From Promethearchaeota archaeon (GTDB taxonomy: Archaea > Asgardarchaeota > Lokiarchaeia > Sigyniarchaeales > Promethearchaeaceae), in the NCBI GenBank assembly GCA_016933055.1, contig JAFGBS010000009.1, forward strand, positions 120,001 to 152,000: a stretch of DNA of 32,000 nucleotides, given 5' to 3'. The position numbers and the translations under genes were made by a program. Shown here piece after piece: positions 2,199-7,594 of the stretch. The first letter of the stretch is position 1; every line of letters starts with the position of its first letter. The notes beneath the pieces are model-generated. The model made no database searches. It was not told the origin of the DNA and saw only the letters and a list, made by a program, of their open reading frames with translations.

Positions 2199-2351
2199 TC
2201 TCCTCGGAATTTAGTGAAAAATTAGTCAATAATTCGACGTGTTTCGCAGATTTTTCCTTATTATGCTGTGGTTGTATAGAAATCAATCTGAATTTTAAGA
2301 ATTATTGAAATGACTAATTTTTTCCCAATCTTATGAATAATAGATTAGCAC

Positions 2352-2374
2352 AGAAAAACAAGAAAAACAAGAAA
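2352..2374 (-). terminator. Oligo-T terminator candidate downstream of tRNA-Ile
   Basis: The minus strand reads TTTCTTGTTTTTCTTGTTTTTCT directly after the discriminator base (two tandem T5 runs). Confidence 0.55.
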
Positions 2375-2500
2375 TGGGAATGGGGGGCTTCGAACCCCCG
2401 CCCTCCGGTTATCCTAGCATATTTTTGGGGCTCTATTGTTTAGAATACCCGCAAAATGTCATATAAGACCGGCGCTATAACCAGGCTAAGCTACACTCCC
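2375..2500 (-). tRNA. tRNA-Ile(UAU) with a 51-nt intron at position 37/38; CCA not encoded
   Basis: Minus strand: acceptor GGGAGTG/CATTCCC plus A73; D arm GCTT-AGCCTGGTTA-TAGC; anticodon stem CCGGT/ACCGG with loop CT-TAT-A|A; variable AGGGC; T arm GGGGG-TTCGAAG-CCCCC. The anticodon TAT is at 2465-2463. Confidence 0.92.
2411..2461 (-). other. tRNA intron with bulge-helix-bulge splice motif
   Basis: Exon bases 32-35 (CTTA) pair with TAGG near the intron 3' end to form the 4-bp central helix. It is flanked by the 3-nt bulges TA|T and AT|A, the canonical archaeal BHB geometry. Confidence 0.88.
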
Positions 2501-2537
2501 TTGACAGAACCGTCAACAAAACACTTTATTGATAAGG

Positions 2538-2728: not shown

Positions 2729-3226
2729 ATGTCTCAAATGATCACTGATTTGATGAATAATATCTATACTCGCATTTCCCAGATGGGATCGGCTATTTCG
2801 AAACTCCAGAAAAGTCTAGACGGCTTAAACTCCCTTATTAATACAAAAATCGAAGAATTGGTACAAACTACTGTATCCATGAAAGAAAACAATGAAAAAG
2901 AAAGTAAAACTTTTGAACTAATATTGCGAGGATATGGGGATGCTTTTTTACAAGAAATTAACCGACTAAAATCAAATATCGGTCTCAAAGATTTGGATGA
3001 ACTCGTCCAAAAATTAAAAAAAATCTCGGAAGCAAGCGAAGAACCACTCAAACCAGAAAATGTAGACCTTCTATTGGATGAAGTACTTGTGGGTATCAAA
3101 AAATTGATGGGACCTTCAGGAGAAGATCCTAAAACAGATGCACCCACCGCAGAAAAGAAACAAGGTATAAAAGGACAATCTATTCAACCAGAGGGATTCA
3201 ATCAAGCATCCCCACCATCGAAATAG
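2729..3226 (+). CDS. Hypothetical all-alpha/coiled-coil protein (A of a tandem pair)
   Basis: 165 aa with heptad-like hydrophobic periodicity and a Pro-rich disordered tail. Purine-rich RBS AAAGGTGGG precedes the ATG. Confidence 0.8.
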   Translation: MSQMITDLMNNIYTRISQMGSAISKLQKSLDGLNSLINTKIEELVQTTVSMKENNEKESKTFELILRGYGDAFLQEINRLKSNIGLKDLDELVQKLKKISEASEEPLKPENVDLLLDEVLVGIKKLMGPSGEDPKTDAPTAEKKQGIKGQSIQPEGFNQASPPSK

Positions 3227-3238
3227 GAGGAAAAGAAT

Positions 3239-3664
3239 ATGGCAGTAGATCAAAATCAAATTGTTAATCAGCTTAATTTAATCCAGCAATACTTAGATGG
3301 AACTATCGCTCAAATCCAAGCAATGGCTACTAATATTGATAATATGGGGAAAAAAATCGCCGAATCCATTGCAGCACTGAATGAGAACCTCCGATTGATC
3401 ATTGAAGTCGTGAAGAAGGGCAGATCCAATCTAACTGAGAGATTAGACGATGTAACAGGGCAAATGAATGACGAGATAAAGAAATTGTGGGAAGAAAAAA
3501 CACTAGAATCTATAACAAAAGAAGAAATGAAAGCGATAGACAAGATTAAAGAAATCAATAAAGTGGTTTCGGATAATCTGTATTCTATTCAACTGCTAAA
3601 TGTAGTGCAAAGTATTCGTGAAATTGTGGGAAGCGCCTTAGCAGTAAAAACTAAAAAGAATTAG
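3239..3664 (+). CDS. Hypothetical all-alpha/coiled-coil protein (B of a tandem pair)
   Basis: 141 aa with heptad periodicity. SD GGAGG lies upstream, 12 nt after the previous stop. Confidence 0.82.
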   Translation: MAVDQNQIVNQLNLIQQYLDGTIAQIQAMATNIDNMGKKIAESIAALNENLRLIIEVVKKGRSNLTERLDDVTGQMNDEIKKLWEEKTLESITKEEMKAIDKIKEINKVVSDNLYSIQLLNVVQSIREIVGSALAVKTKKN

Positions 3665-7503: not shown

Positions 7504-7594
7504 TGGCGGTCCTGATGGAGAGTCGAACTCCAATCTATCCGCTAGATGCTCAGTTTTGAAGACTGAGGTGCTGACCGCAACACTGATCAGGACC
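7504..7594 (-). tRNA. selC: tRNA-Sec (anticodon UCA), 9/4 fold, CCA encoded
   Basis: Minus strand: GGTCCTGAT CA GTGTTG CGGT CAGCAC CTCAGT CTTCAAA ACTGAG C ATCTA GCGGA TAGAT T GGAG TTCGACT CTCC ATCAGGACC G CCA. This gives a 9-bp acceptor, 6-bp D stem with 4-nt loop, 6-bp anticodon stem, long variable arm, 4-bp T stem and G73. The anticodon is at 7559-7557. Confidence 0.96.

Follow-up and report, generated by a model that had tools for sequence, protein, structure and literature searches.

A gene at positions 2375-2500 on the minus strand of the window (the whole 32,000-nucleotide stretch of DNA analysed here) specifies an intron-containing tRNA-Ile with the anticodon UAU, and homologous genes recur throughout those Asgard families that lack TiaS, with one ambiguous case. 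We read the product as a spliced tRNA that decodes AUA and replaces the TiaS/tRNA-Ile2(CAU) route, which the lineage lacks, and put the probability of this reading at roughly 0.88. The separation of AUA (Ile) from AUG (Met) is among the hardest problems of decoding, and each domain is usually claimed to have its own answer; in archaea, AUA is usually read by tRNA-Ile2(CAU), which is converted to its agmatidine form by TiaS.

Structure and conservation of the tRNA-Ile(UAU) gene

The Rfam tRNA model RF00005 aligns to window positions 2375-2500 (-) over model positions 1-71 with 53.2 bits (gathering score, 29), leaving a 52-nt insertion after tRNA position 37. ARAGORN, run in intron mode, reports tRNA-Ile(tat) with a 51-nt intron at the same place; in its default mode the gene is not called. 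These two results confirm the initial annotation as to a complete cloverleaf with TAT at 2465-2463, A73 and a 51-nt BHB intron. Apart from tRNA, no Rfam family matched the region at E-values up to 10. The features of the locus, including two conserved neighbour genes, are as follows.

2375-2500, minus strand: tRNA-Ile(UAU) gene, 126 nt, no encoded CCA (RF00005, ARAGORN -i, covariation over 16 orthologues)
2462-2500, minus strand: 5' exon, tRNA positions 1-37, with the acceptor 5' strand, the D arm, the anticodon stem 5' strand and loop bases C32-A37 (sequence against the Rfam alignment)
2463-2465, minus strand: anticodon T34 A35 T36 (UAU), T34 being position 2465 (sequence, Rfam, ARAGORN)
2411-2461, minus strand: 51-nt intron at 37/38, a long hairpin forming a BHB with the anticodon loop (sequence, ARAGORN, folds; position kept in every orthologue)
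2375-2410, minus strand: 3' exon, with A38, the anticodon stem 3' strand, the variable loop, the T arm, the acceptor 3' strand and A73 at 2375 (sequence, Rfam)
2524-2530, minus strand: AATAAAG, A/T-rich, at -30 to -24 counted from the start of the tRNA, perhaps an archaeal TATA box (from the sequence)
2351-2374, minus strand: T-rich tract TTTCTTGTTTTTCTTGTTTTTCTG directly after A73, a likely transcription stop (from the sequence)
2729-3226, plus strand: 165-aa helical protein of no recognised family, the divergent conserved neighbour (synteny in families f1 and f3; Pfam matches sub-threshold only)
3239-3664, plus strand: 141-aa helical protein without a Pfam family, the second conserved neighbour (anchor for the search in f3)

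All four stems can be written out from the exons. The acceptor stem is GGGAGTG/CATTCCC, the D arm GCTT-AGCCTGGTTA-TAGC, the anticodon stem CCGGT/ACCGG around a loop that reads C-T-T-A-T-A-intron-A, and the T arm GGGGG-TTCGAAG-CCCCC, followed by the discriminator A73 at 2375. Compared with the tRNA-Ile(GAU) of its own genome, the tRNA has an identical D-loop (AGCCTGGTT) and an identical T stem (GGGGG/CCCCC), and the two acceptor strands differ in a single base (GGGAGTG in the UAU gene, GGGCGTG in the GAU gene); A73 and A37 are both present in tRNA-Ile(UAU). Five kilobases from the gene, at window positions 7508-7594 (-), lies a selenocysteine tRNA gene (Rfam tRNA-Sec, 66.1 bits; ARAGORN, tRNA-SeC (tca)).

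An orthologous tRNA-Ile(UAU) gene was found in 48 Asgard genomes of eleven families, among them 12 of the 14 genomes of the source's own family (f1), three of these 12 being single-contig genomes, and all 20 genomes examined in family f3, where the gene occupies one site beside the same two neighbour genes. When loci of f3 were sampled through their 141-aa neighbour gene, all 19 carried the tRNA arm GCGC(A/G)GGTCTTATAA, and the UAU tRNA of the twentieth genome was recovered by a custom covariance model (R1). Both neighbours keep their place beside the tRNA throughout the order Lokiarchaeales, of whose 51 genomes 45 encode the 141-aa protein; the 165-aa neighbour is, as far as known, not part of tRNA function. 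The remaining families with the gene (f2, f4, f6, f7, f9, f19, f26, f27 and f28) were reached with the covariance model and a looser pattern.

Sensitivity differed greatly between search methods. Fixed DNA patterns running from the D arm to the anticodon recovered only 5 of the 14 members of f1 and almost none in f3, whole-gene BLAST was effective within f1 and not in f3, and the Rfam tRNA model recovered 31 tRNAs from a complete f3 genome, the UAU tRNA not among them. Simple patterns, BLAST and Rfam missed the f3 copies because in many of these the D loop or T arm is interrupted by a further intron; the failures of the fixed patterns thus reflect such extra introns, together with variants at U8/G9, and not absence of the gene.

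The cloverleaf is under evident constraint. In an alignment of 16 orthologues, pairing is kept in 96.7% of cells and 14 of 21 pairs have changed on both sides, a figure that none of 500 shuffles reached; controls with slid positions were 37-55% paired. The anticodon loop CTTATA is invariant across this alignment and all 48 genomes. Conservation together with compensatory change effectively excludes both a sequencing error and a pseudogene.

TiaS, CAU tRNAs and the reading of AUA

Searches with the two TiaS domains TiaS_FLD and TiaS_TCKD (PF08489, PF22641) gave no match in the 91%-complete, 3.76-Mb source genome, the same searches detecting both domains in four archaeal control genomes. A 455-aa, four-domain Asgard TiaS used as a query found no match in the 14 genomes of f1 save a trivial zinc-ribbon match. 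Over 400 genomes of the phylum, TiaS_FLD was absent from every one of the 195 genomes that make up twelve families (f1-f7, f9, f19, f26-f28) and present in 184 of the 205 genomes of the remaining Asgard families. The presence or absence of tiaS, named beforehand as a check on the idea of replacement, comes out as absence, both in this genome and in all twelve families.

The second part of that check, a count of CAU tRNAs, bears on the question less firmly. By ARAGORN and a custom stem scan, only two were found in the genome: an initiator, with A1-U72, three G-C pairs (GGG/CCC) beside the loop and an encoded CCA, and an elongator with a 51-nt intron. The tRNA census of this genome is itself incomplete, with about ten expected isoacceptors, including Phe, Tyr and Trp, undetected, probably on account of multiple or non-canonical introns. 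The case against a third CAU tRNA thus depends more on TiaS being absent than on gene counts: two methods agree in finding none, and a census of this completeness leaves room for a third copy.

A survey of Asgard genomes for UAU tRNAs, likewise suggested in the initial annotation, gave the 48 genomes and eleven families described above, so that every TiaS-less family except f5 has a clear tRNA-Ile(UAU). The f5 candidate (G123) was not accepted as a clear case; it can be read either as UAU with two introns or as GAU with one long intron. Four of the families could be tied to named lineages.

f27: Odinarchaeota (exact match to named records)
f19: Hermodarchaeota (exact match to named records)
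f28: Borrarchaeota (exact match to named records)
f9: Atabeyarchaeia (the tRNA coordinates of G002 equal those of 'Atabeyarchaeia-2' in the supplementary table of PMC11291895)

That supplementary table lists the Atabeyarchaeia gene, without comment, as 'Ile TAT, 2 introns, possible pseudo' (PMC11291895). A search of named records also returned UAU tRNA matches in Thermoprotei, Bathyarchaeota, Nanoarchaeota and Woesearchaeota. In TiaS-positive genomes searched in the same way, with patterns that are narrow, no normal UAU tRNA was found. One TiaS-positive, single-contig genome (G067) has an intron-less TAT tRNA-like gene with a poorly paired T stem (L008 c[1465,1537]), which may be a mobile-element tRNA or a pseudogene. 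In another TiaS-positive genome (G005), about 1.3 kb separates the genes for TiaS and tRNA-Ile(GAU) (L002, G005:C67:62841-66182). A possible origin of the UAU tRNA from tRNA-Ile2(CAU) by a C34-to-T change was looked into by seeking the Ile2 gene: the pattern GCRCNNRYCTCATA, applied to TiaS-positive Asgards, matched non-tRNAs only, and model R1, run on G005, recovered the GAU and initiator tRNAs and no Ile2 among the best 30.

In the genomes searched, a normal UAU tRNA and TiaS were thus not found together, the pattern expected from replacement. The central inference of the initial annotation, that a UAU tRNA stands in place of TiaS and agmatidine, is sustained by the absence of TiaS, by the failure to find a third CAU tRNA and by the conservation of UAU across families. 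The steps that we propose run from a predicted transcript to a decoded codon. A 126-nt precursor would be transcribed from the gene; the splicing endonuclease would cut both 3-nt BHB bulges at 37/38 and the halves would be joined; addition of CCA would then give a 75-nt tRNA with the anticodon UAU, which IleRS would be expected to charge and whose U34 would pair with the A of AUA. Some restriction would have to keep U34 off AUG, most likely a modification of U34 and/or U36 introduced on the intron-containing precursor; otherwise an unmodified U34 may be tolerated, as in Mycoplasma mobile.

The UAU tRNA might instead be accessory, most AUA being decoded by a tRNA-Ile2(CAU) that escaped detection and owes its C34 modification to an enzyme with no relation to TiaS. 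Gaps in the census and in the genome (about ten isoacceptors undetected, 91% completeness) would give such a tRNA somewhere to hide, and more than one bacterial chemistry at C34 is in use for AUA (PMC11938285). We nevertheless consider this improbable, as the two CAU tRNAs that two methods found are exactly what initiator and elongator Met require, the UAU gene occurs in all twelve TiaS-less families but one (the one with the ambiguous candidate), and no normal UAU tRNA came to light in TiaS-positive genomes searched likewise.

Codon usage bears on a second alternative, in which the UAU tRNA is charged with Met, or reads AUA and AUG together, and AUA has been recoded as in many mitochondria. 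Among 1,626 long ORFs, ATA accounts for 25.8 per 1000 codons (2.6%) and for 27% of Ile codons, and is commoner than ATG. In codon alignments of the two neighbour proteins over 30 genomes, the columns at ATA hold 55% Ile, 15% Leu, 10% Val and 4% Met, a profile that is the same as that of ATT/ATC and unlike that of ATG; judged from these alignments, AUA means isoleucine here. An unrestricted U34 can wobble to G, which would suit recoding, but ATA aligns with the Ile codons of relatives just as ATT and ATC do, and the body of the tRNA is like that of tRNA-Ile(GAU) and unlike those of Met tRNAs, so that we hold recoding to be very unlikely. Least credible of all is that T34 arose through an error in sequencing or assembly, or through a recent mutation inactivating a tRNA-Ile2(CAU): a single C-to-T change would suffice for either, yet T34 stands unchanged within the invariant CTTATA of 48 genomes that were assembled independently and span eleven families, compensatory changes preserve all four stems and the TiaS that a CAU version would need is absent, which upholds the earlier judgement that a CAT-to-TAT error is unlikely and leaves this alternative next to no probability.

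The intron and a proposed discrimination against AUG

Returning to the reading of the gene as a spliced, AUA-decoding tRNA, a canonical hBHBh' can be drawn from the sequence with the intron at 37/38. The central 4-bp helix consists of C32-G, U33-G, U34-A and A35-U, formed with intron 5'-UAGG-3', and is bordered by two bulges of 3 nt, U36 A37|U and A U|A38, each with its splice site behind the second base. Minimum-energy folds yield close variants of this structure, with the long intron hairpin following the bulges. The pairing of T34 with an intron A had been put forward as an argument against a C at position 34. It holds in the window gene, but as a general argument it fails, the partner being G in relatives such as G136 and G137; nor is it needed, because T34 is invariant across the independently assembled genomes. 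The genome has two EndA-family genes (G000:C2:269466-269690 (-) and G000:C15:75364-75618 (+), within ORFs of 189 and 244 aa), which is consistent with an enzyme of two subunits that can cleave the lineage's numerous non-canonical tRNA introns.

The UAU intron measures 51 nt in the window gene and 45-61 nt in its relatives, and by eye contains no box C/D motifs. ARAGORN places introns in about half of the tRNA genes detected in the genome, so the presence of an intron is not special by itself. Its persistence is more suggestive: an intron directly after the anticodon loop is kept in every UAU gene found in the 48 genomes, and none of about ten tRNA-Ile(GAU) genes from the same genomes has a 37/38 intron. 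An intron that is never lost would favour a role as a modification determinant.

Other introns of these genomes have features of their own. In f3, the tRNA-Ile(GAU) gene (L026/L135; G148, G146) has a 20-nt intron within the anticodon (CTGA|...|TAA), a non-canonical position. The elongator tRNA-Met(CAU) (G000:C15:178323-178447 (-); L038, L123, L128, L131, L141) has a 37/38 intron with a common motif, GGGTCA, found in TiaS-positive and TiaS-negative Asgards alike, and this intron may also be under sequence constraint. In UAU introns from outside Lokiarchaeales, the 5' portion (GGYC-NN-GCTCY) shows complementarity to the exon sequence running from the 3' strand of the D stem to position 32. Covariation between intron and D stem (Odin AAGAGCG/CGCTCTT, Woesearchaeota TTAGAGC/GCTCTAA; L181-L201) was looked at and is not claimed, the per-sequence shuffling statistics being weak.

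In yeast, Psi34 and Psi36 are introduced before the precursor is spliced. Our genome has a single gene of the TruA/Pus1/Pus3 family (PF01416), as ordinary archaea do, and one Cbf5 gene, and a PF01416 search of the genome found no extra Pus1-like paralogue. With one TruA/Pus1-family gene, a dedicated Pus1-like enzyme is not evident, which argues against a Pus1 route of the yeast kind; a different enzyme, for example Cbf5, would be compatible with the single PF01416 gene. Eukaryotes read AUA with Psi34 (PMC3575796, PMC8879553).

A recurrent ACA in the UAU introns offers a tentative lead. The introns surveyed were that at window positions 2411-2461 (-) and those of L010-L013, L049-L054, L096-L121, L147, L173-L179 and L181-L201. 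Of 41 distinct UAU introns, 32 have an ACA that begins at intron position 15, 16 or 17, and two further cases at 15-17 were seen by eye where the script-derived intron fell short; 34 of the 41 have an ACA within intron positions 12-28, against 14.6 expected from shuffles. Among named records, all 14 introns of at least 24 nt, from four phyla (Odin, Borr, Hermod, Thermoprotei, Bathyarchaeota and Woesearchaeota records), have the ACA at position 15 exactly; this set was chosen by a common 21-nt pattern, so that its members are perhaps closely related. As a comparison, none of the 10 canonical introns of at least 25 nt in the source genome has an ACA at positions 13-18. These 10 include the window's own UAU intron, where the ACA is at position 23; the motif is missing from the expected place throughout the window's genus and in a few other lineages, and short DPANN introns are without any ACA. 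Introns that do have it, the majority of UAU introns with at least 24 nt, come from Lokiarchaeia, from Asgards of the Odin, Hermod, Borr and Atabey types, and from Thermoprotei and Bathyarchaeota, and have diverged in the rest of their sequence. The structural context of the ACA varies, from the 5' end of a loop in Loki to the 3' end in Thermoprotei, whereas its distance is kept.

That distance places the ACA 15 nt after U36 and 17 nt after U34. It matches the n+15 spacing between a target uridine and an ACA box bound by Cbf5, as well as a described 17/19 case in which one guide serves both U's of a UNUN target (PMC7075261); the PUA domain of Cbf5 also anchors on the CCA end of tRNA without a guide (PMC2018633). 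By analogy, the intron ACA could recruit Cbf5 in cis and give Psi36 and/or Psi34 before splicing, a proposal that we regard as rather unlikely. If true, the cis-ACA would account for the UAU intron never being lost, and would be the archaeal counterpart of the intron-dependent Psi-A-Psi of eukaryotes.

Relation to known UAU tRNAs and meaning for Asgard archaea

The gene is a further case of a strategy for AUA that has been known since 2005-2011, and not a new kind. The statement that UAU tRNAs are exceptional, with known examples in Nanoarchaeum and Korarchaeum, matches a 2018 survey of 167 archaeal genomes in which these two alone had tRNA-Ile(UAU) (PMC6000648). Fujishima et al. (2011) described tRNA-Ile(UAU) in three ARMAN lineages, 'as occurs in Eukaryotes' (PMC3239211). 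The ARMAN genes are the closest in kind: ARMAN-2, -4 and -5 (Micrarchaeota/Parvarchaeota) share with the present gene an encoded UAU and a 37/38 intron with a strict hBHBh'; in ARMAN, TiaS and tRNA-Ile(CAU) have been lost together, and cleavage of the ARMAN pre-tRNA by the endonuclease was shown in vitro (PMC3239211). They differ in intron length, with 25 nt where the window gene has 51 nt and its relatives have 45-61 nt, and in setting, ARMAN being a tiny DPANN archaeon, whereas the trait here belongs to a 3.76-Mb Asgard genome and is common to several Asgard classes.

Candidatus Korarchaeum cryptofilum and Nanoarchaeum equitans belong to other phyla than the source (PMC6000648, PMC3575796). 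In the former, the UAU gene has an intron and its GAU paralogue has none, and the spliced forms are very alike, the same relation as is seen here (PMC6000648). The literature searched reports no wobble modification for the tRNA-Ile(UAU) of either organism. Among bacteria, Mycoplasma mobile is a prokaryote without the C34-modifying TilS in which AUA is read by a tRNA-Ile2(UAU) (Taniguchi et al. 2013, PMC3575796); unlike the present tRNA, it is bacterial and intron-less, and its U34 is unmodified, with adaptations elsewhere in the system (PMC3575796).

The description of this gene as 'eukaryote-style' is overstated. A UAU tRNA is in all likelihood used for AUA, but the same arrangement, with the intron at 37/38, was already known in ARMAN, Korarchaeum and Nanoarchaeum. 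The cytosolic tRNA-Ile(UAU) of eukaryotes, with its Psi-A-Psi, shares with the present gene both the use of UAU for AUA and an intron beside the anticodon in every gene; it differs in that the intron here has an archaeal BHB and the genome a single TruA/Pus1-family gene. As most genomes of the other Asgard families (184 of 205) keep TiaS, these results do not show that the eukaryotic system is connected with it by direct ancestry. A full-text search combining TiaS or agmatidine with Asgard names found no paper making the point of UAU use and TiaS loss for Asgards.

What emerges is that a large part of the Asgards, namely all sampled Lokiarchaeia and the Odin-, Hermod-, Borr- and Atabey-type lineages, has dropped agmatidine and TiaS. 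These TiaS-less Asgards use the anticodon of eukaryotes, always with an adjoining intron, and other Asgard families keep TiaS. Cultured relatives exist, so that the chemistry of U34 and U36 is open to direct measurement. If the intron directs a modification, the mechanism would be one common to eukaryotes and archaea.
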